From contig WJMR01000378.1 of the NCBI GenBank assembly GCA_014727845.1, positions 1 through 48,144 on the forward strand: a DNA stretch of 48,144 nucleotides. The letters are read 5' to 3'. This document shows positions 18,187 to 26,032 of this stretch, piece by piece. A model generated the notes under the pieces. The model worked only from the letters and a program-made list of their open reading frames with translations. It had not been told where the DNA came from and searched no databases. Source of the stretch: Ignavibacteriales bacterium. GTDB lineage: Bacteria > Bacteroidota > Ignavibacteria > Ignavibacteriales > Ignavibacteriaceae. Both the position numbers and the translations under genes were made by a program. The stretch's first letter is position 1, and the number at the start of each line of letters is the position of its first letter.

Positions 18187-19029
18187 TTATCCCTTCATAC
18201 CGCTGAAGGTGATGCCCCGTACGAAGTGCTTCTGCGCGATGACGAAGAAGATGATGATCGGGAGCAGCACGATTACCGCCGCCGCCATCTGGTGGGGCCA
18301 GTCGGTGGAGTACACGTTCGAGAAGTTGGCGATGCCGACCTCGACGGTGCGCATATTCGTCTGGTTGGTGACGATGAGGGGCCAGAGAAAATCCTTCCAC
18401 GCGTTCATAAAGCTGAAGATCGCCAGCGTGGCGAGCGCGGGTTTGGAGAGGGGGAGGATGATCGTCCAGAAGATGCGCAACTCCGAGGCGCCGTCGATGC
18501 GCGCGGCGTCCTCCAAATCCTTGGGGATGGTGAGGAAGAACTGCCTGAGCAGGAAGATGCCCCAGACGTTTGAGATCCAAGGACCGACGAGCCCAAGGTA
18601 GCTGTTCATCAATCCAAAGGTGTTGACGAGCAGGAACGCGGGGATGATCCACACGATCATCGGGATCATCATCGTCGAGATGTAAACGGCGAAGATTTTG
18701 TCCGAGCCGATGAATTTCACGCGCGCGAAGGCGTAGGCCGCCATCGAGCAGAAGAGGAGCTGCCCCGTAACCGCGACCGCCGAGATGATCGCCGAGTTGA
18801 GAAAGTAGCGCCCGAAGGGCTGCAGCGTCATCGCCTCGATAAAGTTCTCCCACCGCCATGTGTCGGGGATAAACTTCGGGGGGAAGTTGTACACCTCGAG
18901 CTCGGTCATCAGCGAGGTGCTGAGCATCCAGATGAACGGCATCAACATCGATAAGCCCAGCAGAATGAGCGCGATGTAAACGAGGACCGTTCCGAAGCGG
19001 CGGTACCAGGGTTTACGAGTAGTCGACAT
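18187..19029 (-). CDS. carbohydrate ABC transporter permease (MalG/CUT1-type)
   Basis: Six predicted TM segments. EAA-loop motif EDAARIDGASELRIFWTIILPLSKPAL. It overlaps the upstream permease gene by 17 nt (19013-19029). Confidence 0.85.
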   Translation of the reverse strand: MSTTRKPWYRRFGTVLVYIALILLGLSMLMPFIWMLSTSLMTELEVYNFPPKFIPDTWRWENFIEAMTLQPFGRYFLNSAIISAVAVTGQLLFCSMAAYAFARVKFIGSDKIFAVYISTMMIPMIVWIIPAFLLVNTFGLMNSYLGLVGPWISNVWGIFLLRQFFLTIPKDLEDAARIDGASELRIFWTIILPLSKPALATLAIFSFMNAWKDFLWPLIVTNQTNMRTVEVGIANFSNVYSTDWPHQMAAAVIVLLPIIIFFVIAQKHFVRGITFSGMKG

Positions 19030-21298
19030 TTTTACCCACGAGTTTAAATTGAATTCCGGTGAACACCAGCACGATGAAGAAGAGGAACCACGCCATCGCC
19101 GAGGCGTAACCCATACGCAGCTGATTCCATGCGGCGTCGTAGATGTGATAGACGAACACGTCGGTGGCGCCGACGGGACCGCCTTGCGTCATTACGTAGA
19201 TCGTCGTGAAAATCTGGAACGAGCTGATGACCGACGTGACGAGGATGAAGAACGTCGTCGGTTTCAGCAGCGGAAGCGTTACGCGCCAGAACTGCTTCCA
19301 CGGGCTCGCGCCGTCGATGCGGGCGACTTCGTAGAGCTCGTCGGGTATGCCTTGTAAGCCCGCGAGGAAGATGACCATTTGATAGCCGATTTGTAGCCAG
19401 ACGGTGAAGATGATGACGGACATCATCGCCGTGTCGGTCGAGTTCAACCAGTCGAGCTTGGGGAAGCCGAAGACGGTGAGCATGTAGTTCGCCAATCCGT
19501 ACTGCGGGTTGTAGATCCACATCCAGACGAGCGAGATGGCGACGAACGACGTGACGCTCGGGAGGAAGTAGAGCGTTCGCAAGAACCCGATGCCGCCGAG
19601 TCGCTTGTGCATCATCAACGCCACGGCGAGCGAAATGGTCATCGTAACGGGCACGTTCAAAAGGTAGAGGAACGTGTTGCCGATCGAGTTCCAGAACGTC
19701 GGGTCGTTGAACATCTCGATGTAGTTGTCGAATCCGACGAACGGCTTGTCGGGCACGACGATATCCCACCGATGGAAGCTGAGATACAACGAGAAGACCA
19801 TCGGCGTGATGAGGAAAAAGATCAGGTGGATCATCGAGGGGGCGAGGAAGACGAAGCCGAAGCGGGTCTTCGCGCGATCCCTACCCTTGGCGCGGCGGTA
19901 GAGGATAAACAGCAGAATCGCGACGACGACGGTGACGCCCAAAAGGAACTCGACGACCTCGGTGTGTTGTTCGATTTGCTTGAACTCGAACGAGGCGTTC
20001 TCGCGGATGTGTTCGAGCTTGTCGTCCACCTTCACGGCGTACTCGTCGAGCATGTCGTCGAGCGGCTTGTCGTTGAGGATCACCTCGTCGATCATATCCT
20101 GGAGGATCATCTCGATCTCGGTGAAACGCTCGATGCGGCTGCCCCACGGTTGGCGACAGTACTCGACTTCGTCGAGGAACTTCTGTTCCCAGCCGTATTT
20201 GTCGGTGCGCGCCATTTCGTGCGCCACTTCAATGTGCGCTGAAAGTTCGAGTCGGGATTGGGAGCGCACACGACTTGCGTATTCGCCCGTCATAAAGGCG
20301 GCGAGCATTACCGCTTCCTTCTTATGCGGCGCGATGACGGGAACGCAATAGCCCGATTCGTACATCACGTTCACCTTGCCGGAGTCGGGTCCGCGCGGGA
20401 AGCCGACGACGCCGAGATCGAGCACGCCGCTTTCCATATAGTCGAGCATACCGGGGATGCGCCAGTGCCCGTCCACGATCATCGCCATCTTGTTATTAAG
20501 GAAGAGCGCGCGGACGATGCCCGTCTTGCCCGATTGGGACCAGCTACCTACGTCGGGCGCGACGTCGTACTTCTTGCGAAGGTCGATGAGATATTGGAAC
20601 GTCTTACGATTTGTTTCGGTGTTAAGGTATCCGCTCGCCTTCTTTTCGTCCGGACCGATAACGTCTCCGCCCGCCGACCAAACCCACGGGATCCAATTGA
20701 AAAAGTAGTTGGTGAAGTTCGTGCCGTATTGATCGGTCTCGCCGTCGCCGTCGAGGTCTTTCGTGAGTCGTCTCGAGATGCGGAGGTAGTCGTCCCGCGT
20801 CCAATCGTTCGTCGGATAGGGAACGCCCTCTTTATCGAAGAGTTTTTTATTATAGTAAACCATCAACGGGGTGAAGCCCTTGGGGAACGAATAGAGGGCG
20901 TCGTCTTCTCGGGCGATGTCGGTTACGCGACTGAACCACTGGGTGGTGTCCACGCCGAGCGAATCGACGTAGGGGTTGAGGTCCAGCAGAACCTTCTTAT
21001 TATTGAAGGAGGGGATGGACTTCGAGTCGAGGAGGAAGACGTCGGGCGGTTCGCCGGCGGCGAGTCCCGTGAGGATCTTGTTTTCGTATTGCGCGTCGGG
21101 CGTCGGTTGGAAGACGACCTCGATGTGGGGGTGGCGGCGCATAAACTCGTCGACGATCTGTTGCGTTAGCGGCACCTCGTGGATGCCCGCCCAGTTGACG
21201 ACGGTGAGTTTGATCTTTTCGTCGCCGCCGTTATCCTGCGAGAAGAGGGTCGGCGCGAGGAGGAGCGCAAGCGCGAGAATCAAGCCGGTGCGTTTCAA
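19013..21298 (-). CDS. fusion of an extracellular sugar-binding protein (CUT1 SBP) with a MalF-type ABC permease
   Basis: The N-terminal ~450 aa look like a family-1 solute-binding protein (KLTVVNWAGIHE..., YPTNDWTRDDY, WSAGGDV). A TM anchor VVEFLLGVTVVVAILLFILY follows, then a permease with EAA motif EVARIDGASPWKQFWRVTLPLLKP. The start is uncertain: TTG 21298 gives a clean signal peptide (M)KRTGLILALALLLAPTLFSQ with GGGAAG upstream, while the track start 21370 is also a TTG. Confidence 0.75.
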   Translation of the reverse strand: MKRTGLILALALLLAPTLFSQDNGGDEKIKLTVVNWAGIHEVPLTQQIVDEFMRRHPHIEVVFQPTPDAQYENKILTGLAAGEPPDVFLLDSKSIPSFNNKKVLLDLNPYVDSLGVDTTQWFSRVTDIAREDDALYSFPKGFTPLMVYYNKKLFDKEGVPYPTNDWTRDDYLRISRRLTKDLDGDGETDQYGTNFTNYFFNWIPWVWSAGGDVIGPDEKKASGYLNTETNRKTFQYLIDLRKKYDVAPDVGSWSQSGKTGIVRALFLNNKMAMIVDGHWRIPGMLDYMESGVLDLGVVGFPRGPDSGKVNVMYESGYCVPVIAPHKKEAVMLAAFMTGEYASRVRSQSRLELSAHIEVAHEMARTDKYGWEQKFLDEVEYCRQPWGSRIERFTEIEMILQDMIDEVILNDKPLDDMLDEYAVKVDDKLEHIRENASFEFKQIEQHTEVVEFLLGVTVVVAILLFILYRRAKGRDRAKTRFGFVFLAPSMIHLIFFLITPMVFSLYLSFHRWDIVVPDKPFVGFDNYIEMFNDPTFWNSIGNTFLYLLNVPVTMTISLAVALMMHKRLGGIGFLRTLYFLPSVTSFVAISLVWMWIYNPQYGLANYMLTVFGFPKLDWLNSTDTAMMSVIIFTVWLQIGYQMVIFLAGLQGIPDELYEVARIDGASPWKQFWRVTLPLLKPTTFFILVTSVISSFQIFTTIYVMTQGGPVGATDVFVYHIYDAAWNQLRMGYASAMAWFLFFIVLVFTGIQFKLVGKNVDYS

Positions 21299-21535
21299 TG
21301 TCGTTCGCTTCCCTTCGGTGAGATAGCCCGTGAATTTCGATGGATGAAAAAATGGTGTTAACGCTAACAAACGAAATCAAAAAGTAACGGTTTATTAAAA
21401 GAAATGCAAAACTCCTTTGCCGATTTCGAGGACGCGCCGCACGCGTTCGCGCCGATTGTCGCGGCGGCGCGCGTCGCCCCCGTTTTCAGAACGAGCGAGA
21501 AAGTCGTAAATTACGGAAAACCAAAAGGAAGAACA

Positions 21536-22384
21536 ATGACGAAGACCCAAGACGACTACGCCTACGCTATCGGCGACGCGCCGTTTTCGCGCGAAGAGAT
21601 GATCGCCGCGCTCGACGAGTTCGCCGAGCTCTACGAAAAACGTCCGATAAAAGACAACCATGGCGGTATGCTCTCGCCGCACATGTTTCCGCTTTGGTTC
21701 GCGACGCGTCGGCTCAAACCGAAGGCGGTCGTCGAAAGCGGCGTCTTCAAGGGACAGAGCACGTGGCTCATCGAACAAGCCGCGCCCGAGGCGAAGATCT
21801 ACTGCATCGACCCCGAGCTCGATCGCGTCGAATACCGTTCCGAGCGCGCCATGTATTTGTCGGAGGATTTCTCGCGCCACGATTGGACCGATTTGCCCGC
21901 CGAGGATACGCTTCTCTTTTTCGACGACCATCAAAACGCGTACGACCGTTTGAAAGCCGCCGCATGGTTCGGTTTCAAAAAGATCATATTCGAGGACAAC
22001 TATCCGCTCGGGCAAGGCAACTGCTATTCGATTAAGCACGCTCTCTCCAAAGCGGACCCGCAATTCGCCGAACTCGCGAAGACGTTCAAACCCGAACACA
22101 ACGTCGCTTGGTGGAAGCGGCTCTTGGGATTAGACAAACACGTTCCATCCTACGAACCGACGGTCGAACCCGAAACAGACGCGAAGTACTTACGACGCAA
22201 CCTCGCCGTATATTACGAATTCCCGCCCGTCGTTAAGCTCGATCGGAATCGCTGGGGCGATCCTTGGAACGAATCCTACCCGACGCCCGCGCCGTTGTTG
22301 GAAGGAACGCCCGACGGGGCGCGTAAGATCTACGAAGAAGAGGCGGCGTCCTATACGTGGATGGCCTATATCGAGCTTCGTTAG
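21536..22384 (+). CDS. hypothetical protein, possibly a class-I methyltransferase fold (CmcI/TylF-like)
   Basis: ATG 21536 is preceded by AAGGAAG. The segment PHMFPLWFATRRLKPKAVVESGVFKGQSTWLIEQAAPEAKIYCIDP...LLFFDDHQNAY loosely resembles the CmcI/TylF Rossmann core (xxE-G-x-x-G-S...D). This is recognition-level only. Confidence 0.35.
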   Translation: MTKTQDDYAYAIGDAPFSREEMIAALDEFAELYEKRPIKDNHGGMLSPHMFPLWFATRRLKPKAVVESGVFKGQSTWLIEQAAPEAKIYCIDPELDRVEYRSERAMYLSEDFSRHDWTDLPAEDTLLFFDDHQNAYDRLKAAAWFGFKKIIFEDNYPLGQGNCYSIKHALSKADPQFAELAKTFKPEHNVAWWKRLLGLDKHVPSYEPTVEPETDAKYLRRNLAVYYEFPPVVKLDRNRWGDPWNESYPTPAPLLEGTPDGARKIYEEEAASYTWMAYIELR

Positions 22385-22725
22385 CGCCGGCAACGTCGGC
22401 AAAAATCCGGACGCGAAGGCGCGGTTGCACGTCGGTGTTTGTAGCATATCCAGCGACGAGACTGTCGGATATTCGATGATTCCGCGCTCTTGCGCCCGTT
22501 TTTGATTGCAAGCGCTTTAATATTAGCGTTCTTTTTTATACATTTCGACCAATCGGAGGATCCTACGGGGGGTCTCCCGAATAAGCCGCTCGAAAATAAT
22601 CTTTCTCCACCGCGAGCAGTAATCGACTAATAATTGATTAGGCGTTAATCATGACGCGCCGTTTTGACCCTTGTGGTCCAAGCGGCGATGGTCGTACATA
22701 TGGGGAATAGCTCGTAGGAAGGGAA

Positions 22726-23520
22726 ATGCGGTACAAATTCCAGCTCAAGCTTGCGGGGGAACCGCACATTGCGCACAACTATCACGCGTCGCTCGGCGAC
22801 GCCGTTTACAAACTGCTCCGCTTCGACGGGGACGAGTTCTTATCCGACGAGGTCGCGAAGCCGGCGCTTGCGGACGGCGAGCGATACGAATACTACTCAT
22901 ACGCGCTCCGCTTTAGCGAGGTGGCGCCGCAACGCGACGGGTTGAAGCTCAAGAAACCCTACGCCGCGCTCATCTTCAGCGCGCCGGGGGTGGAAGAATA
23001 CATCGCGGGGCTATCCGAACGACTTGAAGGCGAACGCCTCGAGATCTTCGCCGACGGCATCAGAACCGAGTTCGAGATCTCGAAGGTGGAGCCGATTCGA
23101 GATCCGCAGATTAAGCGGATCGACTCCTACACGCTCCTCTCGCCGATGGTCTTGGCGTTGCCGGAGGATCCGAACCAACGCTACTTGCGGCACAACGACG
23201 ATCCCGGGCTCATCAACGAGGCGTTCAACGAATCGCTTCGACGAAAATTTGAAATCGTTAACGGCGAGAAGTACGACGGCGATTCGGCGCGACTCTACTG
23301 GGACCAGAAATACATCTCGAAACGTCTGAAACGCGGCAAGAAGACGACGAAGAAAATCCGCATCTCGAGGAACGGTTCGGCGCCCGAGGAAATCGTCGCG
23401 CTCGAGATTCCGTTCACCGTCGAAGGCGACCCCGAGCTTATCAGAGCCGGTTACCTCGCGGGCTTCGGCGTGAAGAACAACCTCGGCTTCGGGTTGGCGG
23501 AAAAGAAACGATCTCGGTAA
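22726..23520 (+). CDS. cas6: CRISPR-associated endoribonuclease Cas6 homologue (stand-alone in this window)
   Basis: 264 aa, a typical Cas6 size. N-terminal MRYKFQLKL...HIAHNYHASLGDAVYKLL follows the Cas6 first-ferredoxin pattern (xNY...L...iY..L). The C-terminal glycine-rich loop GFGVKNNLGFG fits the Cas6 hallmark GhGxxxxxGhG exactly. RBS AGGAAGG lies upstream of ATG 22726. Confidence 0.75.
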   Translation: MRYKFQLKLAGEPHIAHNYHASLGDAVYKLLRFDGDEFLSDEVAKPALADGERYEYYSYALRFSEVAPQRDGLKLKKPYAALIFSAPGVEEYIAGLSERLEGERLEIFADGIRTEFEISKVEPIRDPQIKRIDSYTLLSPMVLALPEDPNQRYLRHNDDPGLINEAFNESLRRKFEIVNGEKYDGDSARLYWDQKYISKRLKRGKKTTKKIRISRNGSAPEEIVALEIPFTVEGDPELIRAGYLAGFGVKNNLGFGLAEKKRSR

Positions 23521-23528
23521 GCGGTAAT

Positions 23529-23561
23529 AAAAAAGCCGCGCTCAATCGCTCGAACGCGGCT
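23529..23561 (-). terminator. putative Rho-independent terminator of the minus-strand gene 23582-24667
   Basis: Stem AGCCGCG / CGCGGCT (23534-23540 / 23555-23561) with a 14-nt loop. On the minus strand it is followed by TTTTT(T)AT. The loop is long, so confidence is moderate. Confidence 0.5.
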
Positions 23562-23581
23562 CGGAAACGAAAGATAGAAAG

Positions 23582-24667
23582 TTACTTCTCGGGCGCGCTT
23601 CGGGCTATCACGTTCCCGCTCTCGTCAACCATCACGTAATCGACGTTGACCTCGGTCCCGTTGTCAACCATTCCAAACGTCGCCAACGCGAACGCCATCT
23701 CGACCGCGGAGTCGATGCCGTCCAACGTTTCGAGAGCGTCCACTTCGAGTGTCATATATTGCTTCTCGGCGGTTCCCTTCAGCGGCGTATCCTCGTCCAT
23801 CTCGTACTCGAACGCGAGATCGTCCTTCTTGATTTGCATCGCCAATTCCTTGAACGAGCCCTCGGCGCCGCCCATCGAAAACGCGAAATCGAACTTGAGA
23901 GGGACGGTTCCAAAGATCGCGGTCGTCGCCAACGCGGTGAGCGATTCGTTGGAAATCTTGCTCGGATCCTCGAGTTTCGAAATCTCGATATCGCCAAGAT
24001 ACACGTTCTCGAAACCGTGTACCTTCATCTTATTAAGCGCTAAAGCTTTCCGCTCGGCGGTTTCGTCGCCTTCGACGGTCTCCTTTTCTTGCGACGCGGC
24101 GGTTGCGGCAACGTTCTCTTCGGCTTCGGCGTTTTCGCCCGCTAATTGCTTGCCTTCGCCCGACTCGTCGTAGGTGGTGTAGAGCACCTCGCCGGAATTG
24201 TCCTTAATCTCGTAGTTGAACATATATTGCGTCGTCGATTCGTGCTCGCCGAGCGTTGCGATCTCCCACGCCAGATCGACCGCCGCGTCCATACCGTCGG
24301 CTACTTCCAGCGCGTCCATCTCGATTTGCATTACGTTCTCTCCCGGCGTCGCGTTGATTTGCTTCTCGTCGTCCATCTCGTAGAAAAACTCCGAGTCCTC
24401 GCTCTTAATCAGCAAATCCATCTTCGAGAAGGTACCCTGAAACTCCTCGTTTGTCTGAAAGGCGAGGTCGAACTTAAGCGGCACCGTTCCGAAGATCGCG
24501 CTTGTCGCCAGCGCCGTTAGATCGGACGTCGGGATGTCGCTCGGATTGCTAAGCGCGGAAATCGCGATGTCGCCCAGATACACATTCTTAAACGCGAAGT
24601 TCGTTAATTGCCCGTAGCTCGTCGCCGCGAACGCGACGACAATAACCGTTAGTAATAGCTTTCTCAT
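23582..24667 (-). CDS. secreted protein of unknown function built from two tandem ~140-aa repeats joined by an acidic linker
   Basis: Signal peptide MRKLLLTVIVVAFAATSYGQ. Repeat 1 (FKNVYLGDIAIS...LTALATSAIFGTVPLKFDLAF...EMDALEVADGMDAAVD) and repeat 2 (FENVYLGDIEIS...LTALATTAIFGTVPLKFDFAF...EVDALETLDGIDSAVE) are clearly homologous. I recognise no family. G+C is lower than in neighbouring genes: three sampled 60-nt lines gave 45, 50 and 58%. Confidence 0.6.
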   Translation of the reverse strand: MRKLLLTVIVVAFAATSYGQLTNFAFKNVYLGDIAISALSNPSDIPTSDLTALATSAIFGTVPLKFDLAFQTNEEFQGTFSKMDLLIKSEDSEFFYEMDDEKQINATPGENVMQIEMDALEVADGMDAAVDLAWEIATLGEHESTTQYMFNYEIKDNSGEVLYTTYDESGEGKQLAGENAEAEENVAATAASQEKETVEGDETAERKALALNKMKVHGFENVYLGDIEISKLEDPSKISNESLTALATTAIFGTVPLKFDFAFSMGGAEGSFKELAMQIKKDDLAFEYEMDEDTPLKGTAEKQYMTLEVDALETLDGIDSAVEMAFALATFGMVDNGTEVNVDYVMVDESGNVIARSAPEK

Positions 24668-24683
24668 AATTACGCCCTAACTT

Positions 24684-24730
24684 TTTGTGAAATGCCGTTT
24701 GTGAAATGCCGTGCCGTTTGTGAAATGCCG
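24684..24730. repeat. three direct copies of a 14-nt unit TTTGTGAAATGCCG immediately upstream of the minus-strand gene start
   Basis: Exact copies at 24684-24697, 24698-24711 and 24717-24730. Copies 2 and 3 are separated by TGCCG. The nearest copy ends 16 nt upstream of ATG 24667. Confidence 0.9.
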
Positions 24731-24989
24731 TGACTTGCCGCCGCGAATATAGTTACAAGCGCGCCGCCACACAATAGGGTATTGCACTATTTGAGATTTG
24801 TTGATAACTTGTTGTAACGGTGCATGTGCTTTGGGTCACATAGCTCTCAAGACCAATTCTATATATTATAATCTATGCGCTCGGCTTCTCCCGGAATGGA
24901 ATTGCCGACGCTAATTGAACGCCATCGTCTCCGAAGCGTTTGCGTTGGTATGGGCTCGGATTCGGAGCGACACAAGGAAGGGAACGGGT

Positions 24990-25817
24990 ATGGAAGGTAG
25001 AACGGGCGACCGCGGAGCGTCGCGCGAATGTTGCGATCCGATAATACGACACCTCGATAGATTCTGCGTCGCGGCGAGCGGCGCGGGCGCGGTGATGACC
25101 GATAGAATCGATTCCTCGGAGGAACGATTTCGACAAGCGGCGTCGTACGCCGGCTTCGTATGCGAAGAGTTCAAATCAACGATTGAACAAACCCGACGCG
25201 ATCCCGAAGAGATTTGGATGAGCTTTCAAGAAGGAGATCGCGTTCTTTCCTACACGAGCAAATCGTTTACCTATCTCGGCGAAGCGACGAGCTTCGTCTA
25301 TGAGGAGCGGATTTTCGCGGGTAGGCGCGCGCTGTGGGACGCCTATTACGCGGGCGAGGACGAGCTCGACGAAATAAGAGCCGGCGAACCCGTTTTTCTT
25401 CGCCGCCGCGAGACGCTCGAATCGCTCGAACGACTTTCGCCGTATCACACGCTCTACGCGCTTCGCACGCCAATCGAAACGGCGTACTGCACGCGCGAAC
25501 GACTTCGTCACATCCTTCACGAGCATGACTACGCCCGCGATCGACTCGAGCGCCTACTCGACGCGCTCGACGCGCCCGAGGAGATTTTCGAGACGGTCGA
25601 GGGACATAATCGCCATCACTTCTATATCGGCGCCACCGACGAGGGCGCGCACATCGTCGCCGTTCGGTCGCGCGAGACGGACGGAGACGTGGTGGACGCG
25701 TTTCCGCTCGACGGATGTCGGGAGATCGAGCAGTTCCGAACGGGCGAGCGTATCTATTCGCTCAAAGCGCGGCGCGACAAATCGCCTCGATTGAGAATAA
25801 TGACGGGCTTGCTTTAG
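24990..25817 (+). CDS. hypothetical protein; the C-terminal region has a weak RelE/barnase-EndoU-colicin-like (BECR) toxin-domain flavour
   Basis: Long ORF with coding-like composition. ATG 24990 is preceded by AAGGAAGGGA; alternative starts are ATG 25095 (MTDRIDSSEERF) and the track TTG 24915. C-terminal pattern: RHILHEHDYARDRLERLLDALDAPEEIFE...HHFYIGATDEGAHIVAVRSRETDGDVVDAFPLD. No family is confidently recognised. Confidence 0.5.
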   Translation: MEGRTGDRGASRECCDPIIRHLDRFCVAASGAGAVMTDRIDSSEERFRQAASYAGFVCEEFKSTIEQTRRDPEEIWMSFQEGDRVLSYTSKSFTYLGEATSFVYEERIFAGRRALWDAYYAGEDELDEIRAGEPVFLRRRETLESLERLSPYHTLYALRTPIETAYCTRERLRHILHEHDYARDRLERLLDALDAPEEIFETVEGHNRHHFYIGATDEGAHIVAVRSRETDGDVVDAFPLDGCREIEQFRTGERIYSLKARRDKSPRLRIMTGLL

Positions 25818-25892: not shown

Positions 25893-25923
25893 AAAAAAAA
25901 GGTCTCGCGTGGAGACCTTTTTT
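25893..25923. terminator. bidirectional Rho-independent terminator between ORF 24990-25817 (+) and tRNA-Ser (-)
   Basis: A8 run, stem GGTCTC / GAGACC (25901-25906 / 25912-25917), 5-nt loop, then a T6 run. It reads as hairpin plus U-tract on both strands. Confidence 0.65.
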
Positions 25924-25939: not shown

Positions 25940-26032
25940 TGGCGGAGAGGGCGGGATTCGAACCCGCGAAGCCGGTTTACCCGACTTGACGGTTTAGCAA
26001 ACCGTTGGTTTCAGCCACTCACCCACCTCTCC
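25940..26032 (-). tRNA. tRNA-Ser (anticodon GCU), long variable arm, CCA encoded
   Basis: The reverse complement reads GGAGAGGTGGGTGAGTGGCTGAAACCAACGGTTTGCTAAACCGTCAAGTCGGGTAAACCGGCTTCGCGGGTTCGAATCCCGCCCTCTCCGCCA. Acceptor stem GGAGAGG/CCTCTCC. Anticodon stem ACGGT/ACCGT with loop TTGCTAA. T-loop GGTTCGAATCC. The long extra arm is typical of tRNA-Ser. Confidence 0.9.

Follow-up and report, generated by a model that had tools for sequence, protein, structure and literature searches.

A stand-alone Cas6 homologue without the canonical catalytic residues in an Ignavibacteriales contig

Cas6 is regarded as a dedicated nuclease for the processing of CRISPR RNA (crRNA). Departures from this arrangement are already known, namely stand-alone Cas6, Cas6 serving orphan arrays, active Cas6 without the canonical histidine and a non-catalytic archaeal paralogue (PMC5965381, bioRxiv 10.1101/2020.04.14.041012, PMC3652601, PMC3902920). 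PH0350 of Pyrococcus horikoshii, in particular, has been called a non-catalytic Cas6 homologue (PMC3902920). Here we describe a Cas6-family gene, hereafter cas6, in a 48,144-nucleotide (nt) stretch of an Ignavibacteriales genome (assembly GCA_014727845.1, contig WJMR01000378.1, positions 1 to 48,144; "the window"). Judged by its sequence the encoded protein, hereafter the window protein, lacks the canonical active site, and it more probably acts as an RNA-binding protein than as a nuclease.

The canonical type I-B and III-A enzymes (Methanocaldococcus jannaschii, 5YI6; Pyrococcus furiosus, 3PKM) are like the window protein in length, in the double RNA recognition motif (RRM) fold, in the glycine-rich loop (G-loop) of the form GhGxxxxxGhG, in the tyrosine of helix alpha1 and in their full-length profile matches, and its nearest sequence relatives (27-38% identity) are Ignavibacteria enzymes of this kind. 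The window protein differs from them in lacking the His and the Lys residues that are invariant in those relatives, and it is only 36% identical to the nearest relative outside its own small clade. Furthermore, its gene does not open a cas operon, and neither an array nor a cas gene accompanies it within 48 kb.

The window protein belongs to the Cas6 family by sequence and predicted fold, because the profile matches and the structural model agree. It scored 57.2 bits against PF01881 (cut-off 23), 75.5 bits against the PADLOC Cas6 profile over its full length (residues 1-259) and 59.0 bits against TIGR01877, barely over the cut-off of 58.65. The G-loop GFGVKNNLGFG occupies residues 246-256, and G246, F247, G248, G254, F255 and G256 are invariant in a 35-sequence alignment. 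An AlphaFold2 model made with 35 homologues (predicted local distance difference test score, pLDDT, 92.4; predicted template modelling score, pTM, 0.88) predicts two tandem ferredoxin/RRM domains, the fold of a repeat-associated mysterious protein (RAMP). Every Foldseek match in the PDB at E <= 1e-6 was a Cas6-family structure (Cas6, Cas6b or Cse3/Cas6e). The best E-value was obtained with M. jannaschii Cas6 (1e-18), and the top TM-scores (0.72-0.75) with 3UFC, a Cas6-related protein of P. furiosus, and 3QJJ, the P. horikoshii PH0350 protein. An earlier interpretation of the window made from the letters only (the sequence-only reading) had assigned a 264-residue open reading frame (ORF) with a good ribosome-binding site to Cas6 from its N-terminus and G-loop, and had proposed the double-ferredoxin RAMP fold as something to be confirmed by structure prediction. 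Both proposals held, that of the fold at the level of a model. The ORF lies on the forward strand with the quoted N-terminus and an ATG start (Table 1), and the Shine-Dalgarno-like motif AGGAAGG directly 5' of this codon is the same in a second lineage whose protein is 87% identical.

Profile alignment places His46 (in 'YLHE') and Lys52 (in 'PKLF') of P. furiosus Cas6 (PfuCas6) in the 'FLH' and 'YKLF' columns of the relatives. In the window protein these two columns hold V43 and E55, and a further Lys that is invariant in the relatives is E52. The equivalent of PfuCas6 Tyr31 is retained as Y28 on helix alpha1. Hence, of the residues Tyr31-His46-Lys52 or their equivalents, only the tyrosine is kept; the sequence-only reading had proposed locating the catalytic His, Tyr and Lys by structure prediction, and of these the alignment shows the Tyr but not the other two.

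We then compared the 39 closest cluster representatives (50% identity), split by the His column into 20 His-bearing and 19 His-less proteins. Y28, H43, K52, K55, N170 and K250 are 90-100% conserved in the His-bearing set and at most 47% conserved in the His-less set, and the His and two Lys that correspond to V43, E52 and E55 are invariant in all 20 of these close His-bearing relatives. The fold core, both GFG triplets, K174, P229-F230 and W192 are common to the two sets. This split in conservation is the pattern expected where catalysis is lost and the fold and RNA contacts are retained. By this alignment-based evidence the window protein has lost the canonical Cas6 active site. 3UFC and PH0350 show the same two losses, with E/S at the His column and W at the Lys column.

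PH0350 'Cas6nc' (3QJJ, 3QJL and 3QJP) and 3UFC are thus like the window protein in combining the Cas6 fold and a G-loop with the absence of the PfuCas6 His and Lys. Their identity to it is, however, only 16-18% in structural alignment, and phmmer returned E = 0.03 for PH0350; the low identity to PH0350 therefore argues for an independent loss in the bacterial lineage rather than for orthology. Deposited PH0350-RNA complexes indicate that PH0350 binds CRISPR repeats, and the window protein may or may not do the same. The crenarchaeal SsoCas6 of Sulfolobus (Sso1437/Sso2004) also has no canonical catalytic His (PMC3652601). It is nevertheless active and dimeric, with a network of basic residues, and occurs in CRISPR-rich genomes, whereas the window protein has Glu in place of the basic residues at the equivalent site and its model is structurally less similar to SsoCas6 (TMq ~0.45-0.52). 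Finally, the trans-acting Cas6 proteins for orphan arrays of Anabaena PCC 7120 are encoded away from those arrays (bioRxiv 10.1101/2020.04.14.041012), as the window gene would be. These are experimentally active maturation endonucleases, whereas the window protein is without the residues that are invariant in its subfamily.

No CRISPR array was found in the 48 kb using Tandem Repeats Finder, a direct-repeat search, Rfam and a k-mer chain search, and Pfam found no other cas gene among the 23 large ORFs of the window. These ORFs are of Bacteroidota/FCB (Fibrobacteres, Chlorobi, Bacteroidetes) type and include a C25 peptidase, PorV, Por_Secre_tail, GH31, ABC transporter and RecD2 genes. A tblastn search of the six window frames with 311 proteins from the cas operons of relatives gave a single marginal match (E 0.002), which is not significant because of the number of queries. 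The absence of an array and of other cas genes from the window, as noted in the sequence-only reading, therefore stands.

Close copies of the window protein are few. A word-indexed search of 5.8 billion proteins returned only a 99% and an 87% identical copy, the former on a 172-kb contig of which ~21 kb was read, and in an exhaustive search of 1.84 billion cluster representatives the next relative was at 36% identity. The closest sequence relatives are bacterial Cas6 proteins (30-37% identity). Scanning 185,579 GTDB species genomes gave 80 loci at 26-38% identity, fetched by the G-loop pattern Yx[AC]GFG[EV]KN and mostly from Ignavibacteria and Melioribacteraceae metagenome-assembled genomes (MAGs), and no relative above 38% identity. 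Neighbour clustering and annotation showed genes for Cas10, Csm2-5 and CARF proteins (type III-A) or for Cas3, Cas4, Cas1 and Cas2 (type I-B) directly downstream at these loci, and arrays of 30-nt repeats were within reach at 10 of them. Nearly all His-bearing relatives (27-38% identity, mostly Ignavibacteria) are the first gene of such a type III-A or I-B cas operon. All operon-linked Cas6 proteins of the GTDB loci have the 'FLH' His; the only ones without it are those of the window clade and of L069/L073, both of which are solo.

Genomic contexts of the relatives were read over up to 10 kb per side, less on short contigs. Among 54 His-bearing proteins with enough flanking sequence, 49 had core cas neighbours, three were beside I-B Cas8/7/5 clusters, one (locus L048) was truly solo and one was unclear. 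All nine His-less lineages with a readable context (the window clade, L069/L073, P0006, P0007, P0010, P0012, P0025 and P0047) were solo among non-cas genes, their flanks over that distance holding neither a cas gene nor an array. The P-numbered relatives had been picked by rank, their contexts not being known beforehand. The association of residue loss with the solo state gave a Fisher p of ~4e-7, a value that is not corrected for phylogeny. The sequence-only reading had asked whether this Cas6 clade is usually array-less; over the flanks read, the His-less lineages are so, and the His-bearing members are mostly linked to cas operons.

Several of the solo His-less homologues have the same neighbours. 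P0006 and P0012 are both upstream of spoVG, one with a WYL/WCX regulator in between, and yicC, gmk and rpoZ come next in L098. P0010 and P0025 are both beside a divergent motA-exbB/motB pair, and P0047 adjoins a GGDEF-EAL gene. (The loci concerned are L096 1075-3170, L098 10001-11133, L094 5489-7374 and L100 8828-10795.) The recurrence of spoVG and of motA-exbB/motB across distant lineages suggests long vertical residence of these solo genes. P0007 is followed on its 3' side by a short second Cas6-like gene and then by non-cas genes. The MAG that holds P0007 (CALODP01) also holds L034. This I-B locus is complete, with two arrays and an intact, His-bearing Cas6 of its own, and the solo P0007 is therefore not needed for crRNA processing there.

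Three side observations were made at the loci of relatives. At L092 (10001-11525; GCA_942492055.1, CALODP010000031.1) there is a tandem solo Cas6 pair, a 284-residue His-less protein and a 217-residue short form that resembles the second Cas6 gene of I-B operons. Its surroundings are non-cas genes, and the MAG is the one that also contains L034; the pair looks like the first two genes of an I-B operon kept after the loss of the rest. The truly solo gene at L048 (334-1146), with GHL10, FHA, VWA and PP2C neighbours, encodes both the His and the Lys ('YLHKQGF'), and P0018, an otherwise near-identical cluster representative, reads 'YLFKQGF'; this may be a lineage caught while losing the His. The k-mer chain search also found tandem repeats with units of ~50-90 nt near cas loci (L025 7996-8150, L062 20602-20764 and L013 19748-19928), which are not arrays of the 30-nt repeat family.

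The window protein matched a hidden Markov model (HMM) built from the His-less proteins at 233 bits and its counterpart from the His-bearing proteins at 212 bits. When the active-site columns were left out, the nearest neighbour of the window protein was His-less in 92 of 100 neighbour-joining bootstraps. These sequence comparisons support an affinity of the window protein to the His-less group.

Comparison with the 87%-identical lineage (locus L007) gave a ratio of nonsynonymous to synonymous substitution rates (dN/dS) for cas6 of 0.14-0.16 at a dS of 0.43-0.49. The ratio is similar for the neighbouring 361-residue protein gene (0.10) and PBECR2 gene (0.18), and the two lineages are only ~17% diverged in DNA. 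Contigs from at least six samples of one lineage, and from two of the other, carry an intact cas6 ORF. The gene is under purifying selection and is not decaying.

The sequence-only reading had judged cas6 to be monocistronic from the 341-nt non-coding gap that separates it from the end of the upstream gene (22384) and from the convergent gene downstream. Both are present, and a terminator-like hairpin lies between the convergent genes. Within the gap is a conserved leader of 220 nt (Table 1). A 120-nt core of the leader is ~90% identical between the two lineages as against 75% at the third codon positions of cas6. The inner stem of its second hairpin is GACC/GGUC in one lineage and GUUCC/GGAAC in the other, a compensatory change. 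The first hairpin, CGGAGGAUCCUACGGGGGGUCUCCCG, is unique within the window and gave two unrelated chance matches only in a metagenome collection that is without the known Joint Genome Institute (JGI) contigs. An Rfam search with the leader gave only noise at E <= 10 and no family at E < 3.

Several other interpretations of the leader were tried and discarded. The segment GTAATCGACTAATAATTGATTA (22619-22640) resembles the 30-nt repeats of relatives (GTTTTAATCGAACTATTATAGAATTGAAAT) by eye and was considered as a solitary degenerate CRISPR repeat; it was rejected, as an nhmmer model of nine repeats from relatives had no match in the leader and its best match in the window, outside the leader, was at chance level (E = 19). 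A 19-codon ATG ORF in the leader is not kept in L007. The leader is not common to other solo homologues either, there being no similarity upstream of L069/L073, L091, L092 and L094; the upstream regions of L069/L073 share only a promoter-like block. In the 87% lineage, the starts of the L007 and L008 contigs fall within ~20 nt, some 220-280 nt 5' of cas6 and just upstream of the leader. One sample may have been assembled twice; if it was not, the break hints at a repeat or at a junction that varies between strains.

On balance we lean, with only modest confidence, towards the window protein being a non-catalytic, Cas6-derived RNA-binding protein that is encoded as a single-gene unit with its own leader. 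The protein keeps the predicted double-RRM fold, the glycine-rich RNA-binding loop and a basic C-terminal hairpin, and is without the canonical acid-base residues, the His having become Val43 and the two Lys Glu52 and Glu55. It would bind RNA by sequence or by structure without cleaving it in the manner of canonical Cas6, much as the P. horikoshii Cas6nc would in function, and we infer from the residues kept and lost that binding is retained and cleavage is not. Expression would be from its own promoter with the long conserved leader. Its target is a matter of speculation: CRISPR repeat RNA made elsewhere, the protein's own leader, which would be autoregulation, and some other RNA of the cell are all candidates.

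A number of points weigh against a non-catalytic protein. Y28 and K250 are retained, and His14, His17 and His20 are present near the start of helix alpha1, the region in which the catalytic His of Cas6e and Cas6f sits. Sulfolobus Cas6 cuts without the canonical His (PMC3652601). Furthermore, the residues of the catalytic triad are not universal across Cas6 (PMC3652601, PMC3150331), and Methanococcus maripaludis Cas6b tolerates single His mutations (PMC3479195). Given such plastic sites and the three N-terminal histidines, an alternative active site is therefore possible. The evidence from relatives and from the leader has weak places too. The G-loop pattern favours canonical proteins, so the proportions among the GTDB loci are not a census. 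One large His-less clade was recovered in only 32 of 100 neighbour-joining bootstraps of the distance tree, and the grouping of the window protein with His-less relatives may be partly long-branch attraction. The leader folds only marginally better than shuffled sequence (z-scores -1.9 and -1.4), and with these weak scores and two independent sequences its RNA structure is suggestive only. Finally, the protein may serve a distant array, the analysis having covered 48 kb of the genome, and no RNA partner was found for it.

A broader proposal, which we offer only tentatively, is that solo triad-less Cas6 homologues have been exapted as RNA-binding factors for non-CRISPR RNAs and act independently of CRISPR, the window gene being a divergent member of high G+C, perhaps with its 5' leader as a means of autoregulation. 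This proposal draws on the triad-less homologues that make up at least 19 clusters (50% identity) among the closest relatives, and on their stable surroundings outside cas operons, with spoVG/yicC, with motA-exbB/motB or, in the window, with a conserved and putatively structured leader.

We think it rather unlikely, although a serious competitor, that the window protein is an ordinary trans-encoded Cas6 which is active through a non-canonical site and processes the pre-crRNA of distant arrays. Precedents exist in the Cas6 proteins for distant or orphan arrays, for example those of Anabaena (bioRxiv 10.1101/2020.04.14.041012), and in active His-less Cas6 (PMC3652601), and the solo gene at L048, with its His and Lys, indicates that solo active Cas6 occurs in the family. 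The full-length profile matches, the intact G-loop, Y28, K250 and purifying selection would also be expected of such an enzyme. However, every operon-linked member of the subfamily keeps the His, K52 and K55; none of these is left in the window protein, where acidic residues have taken the place of two. The cas operons of relatives have a cas6 of their own as the first gene, in one MAG a solo His-less homologue occurs together with a complete locus whose Cas6 is intact, and the HMM of relatives' repeats found nothing above chance in the window. The sequence-only reading had offered two options, a trans-acting Cas6 for a distant locus or a RAMP RNase with a non-CRISPR RNA as its new substrate. 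Both build on a Cas6 that stands alone, and this much is supported; the active RNase that both assume is, in its canonical form, disfavoured by V43, E52 and E55. The change of these residues therefore weakens the first option, and shifts the second from a recruited RNase to a non-catalytic, Cas6-derived protein that binds RNA, be this a CRISPR repeat or not.

Table 1. Features of the cas6 locus (positions in the window)
Feature	Position	Strand	Basis and remarks
Gene for a 326-residue protein, upstream of cas6	21404..22384	+	ORF; sub-threshold methyltransferase matches only, no significant family
Conserved non-coding leader	22507..22725	+	80% identity to the 87% lineage; probable promoter and putative ~175-nt 5' untranslated region
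Leader hairpin CGGAGGAUCCUACGGGGGGUCUCCCG	22554..22579	+	Minimum free energy folds of both lineages; stem sequence conserved
Second leader hairpin	22657..22687	+	Alignment and folds; outer stem CGCCG/CGGCG conserved
cas6 coding sequence	22726..23520	+	264 residues; Y28 and glycine-rich loop 246-256 kept; V43, E52 and E55 in place of His and two Lys
Terminator-like G+C-rich hairpin between convergent genes	23533..23562		Consensus scan; 13-bp stem, then T-run on the minus strand
Convergent gene for a 361-residue protein, family without match	23582..24667	-	ORF; syntenic in both lineages
PBECR2-domain (barnase/EndoU/colicin-E5/RelE-like nuclease) gene	24915..25817	+	PF18810, 41.4 bits; syntenic in both lineages
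tRNA-Ser(gct)	25940..26032	-	ARAGORN and Rfam

Two protein genes separate cas6 from a tRNA-Ser gene. The 361-residue protein is acidic and begins with a hydrophobic stretch like a signal peptide; blastn revealed two repeats of ~170 residues within it, and profile scans returned no family above cut-off for it. At 94% amino-acid identity to its L007 counterpart, it is more conserved than cas6. The neighbour to which the sequence-only reading had ascribed a nuclease-like C-terminus does carry such a domain, PBECR2, well over the PF18810 cut-off of 27.1 bits. The probable start of its gene is the ATG at 24990 (274 residues), in agreement with gene calls of 274-275 residues elsewhere. In the divergent promoter region between these two genes, TTTGTGAAATGCCG occurs three times in tandem (units of 14/19 nt) at 24679-24732. 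The alignment with L001, a 96-97% identical contig, breaks exactly at these copies, which suggests a difference in copy number; they are possibly operator sites.

It appears improbable to us that cas6 belongs to a small islet at tRNA-Ser, whether mobile or for defence, and works with the PBECR2 protein, for example as an RNA-targeting toxin/immunity or abortive-infection pair. The order cas6, 361-residue protein gene, PBECR2 gene and tRNA-Ser is the same in both lineages, although this says little because of their small divergence in DNA. The flank of the tRNA gene is a variable spot between strains, as L001 has a 1.4-kb insertion (L001 13137-14562, at window position 25895) between the PBECR2 gene and tRNA-Ser, with two short unknown ORFs along with part of a gene for an N6/N4 DNA methyltransferase. 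The slightly lower G+C of the locus (0.52-0.56 at 22-25 kb against ~0.60 overall) would also fit an islet. However, the ABC transporter genes at 17-22 kb are equally low in G+C, and the three genes form three transcription units, convergent and then divergent. There is no integrase at the locus and PADLOC had no match for the neighbours of cas6. We considered and rejected a genomic island with a repeated tRNA-Ser 3' end at its border, as no such attachment (att)-like repeat was found in the window, and a PHROGs search for a phage origin of the neighbours gave nothing informative. The other solo His-less relatives all lack a PBECR2 neighbour. The tRNA gene and the lower G+C invoked in the sequence-only reading are real; since the low-G+C zone has no clear bounds and the PBECR2 neighbour is absent from the other solo His-less relatives, the argument from such a setting is weak. 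In the region of the ABC transporter genes we also observed a 785-residue ORF (19013-21370, minus strand) in which an SBP_bac_1 domain (69-363) is fused to a BPD_transp_1 domain (579-774); this binding protein/permease fusion is called as 761-788 residues in L001 and L002.

That cas6 is a functionless remnant of a lost CRISPR-Cas locus is very improbable: the catalytic residues and all neighbouring cas genes are gone, and L092 resembles two leftover I-B operon genes, but a dN/dS of 0.16 at a dS of ~0.45, an ORF intact in at least six and two samples of the two lineages, a confident fold prediction and the conservation of the leader and ribosome-binding site argue against it.

A review of CRISPR exaptations lists no stand-alone Cas6 (PMC8730458), and in full-text literature searches and in this review we found no description of bacterial, chromosomally stable solo Cas6 homologues without catalytic residues. 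Collectively, the comparisons made here show that the catalytic residues are lost in conjunction with departure from the cas operon, either repeatedly or in one broad group, and the window protein stays under purifying selection. This pattern points to a second life of a RAMP protein as an RNA binder. To our knowledge the role of the Pyrococcus Cas6nc is still unsettled, and the proteins described here provide a concrete set with which to ask what a non-catalytic Cas6 does. Synthetic biologists now mutate Cas6 to obtain sequence-specific RNA-binding modules that are cleavage-dead, and these proteins would add natural ones. In practice, crRNA processing should not be read from a 'Cas6' annotation at the TIGR01877 cut-off.

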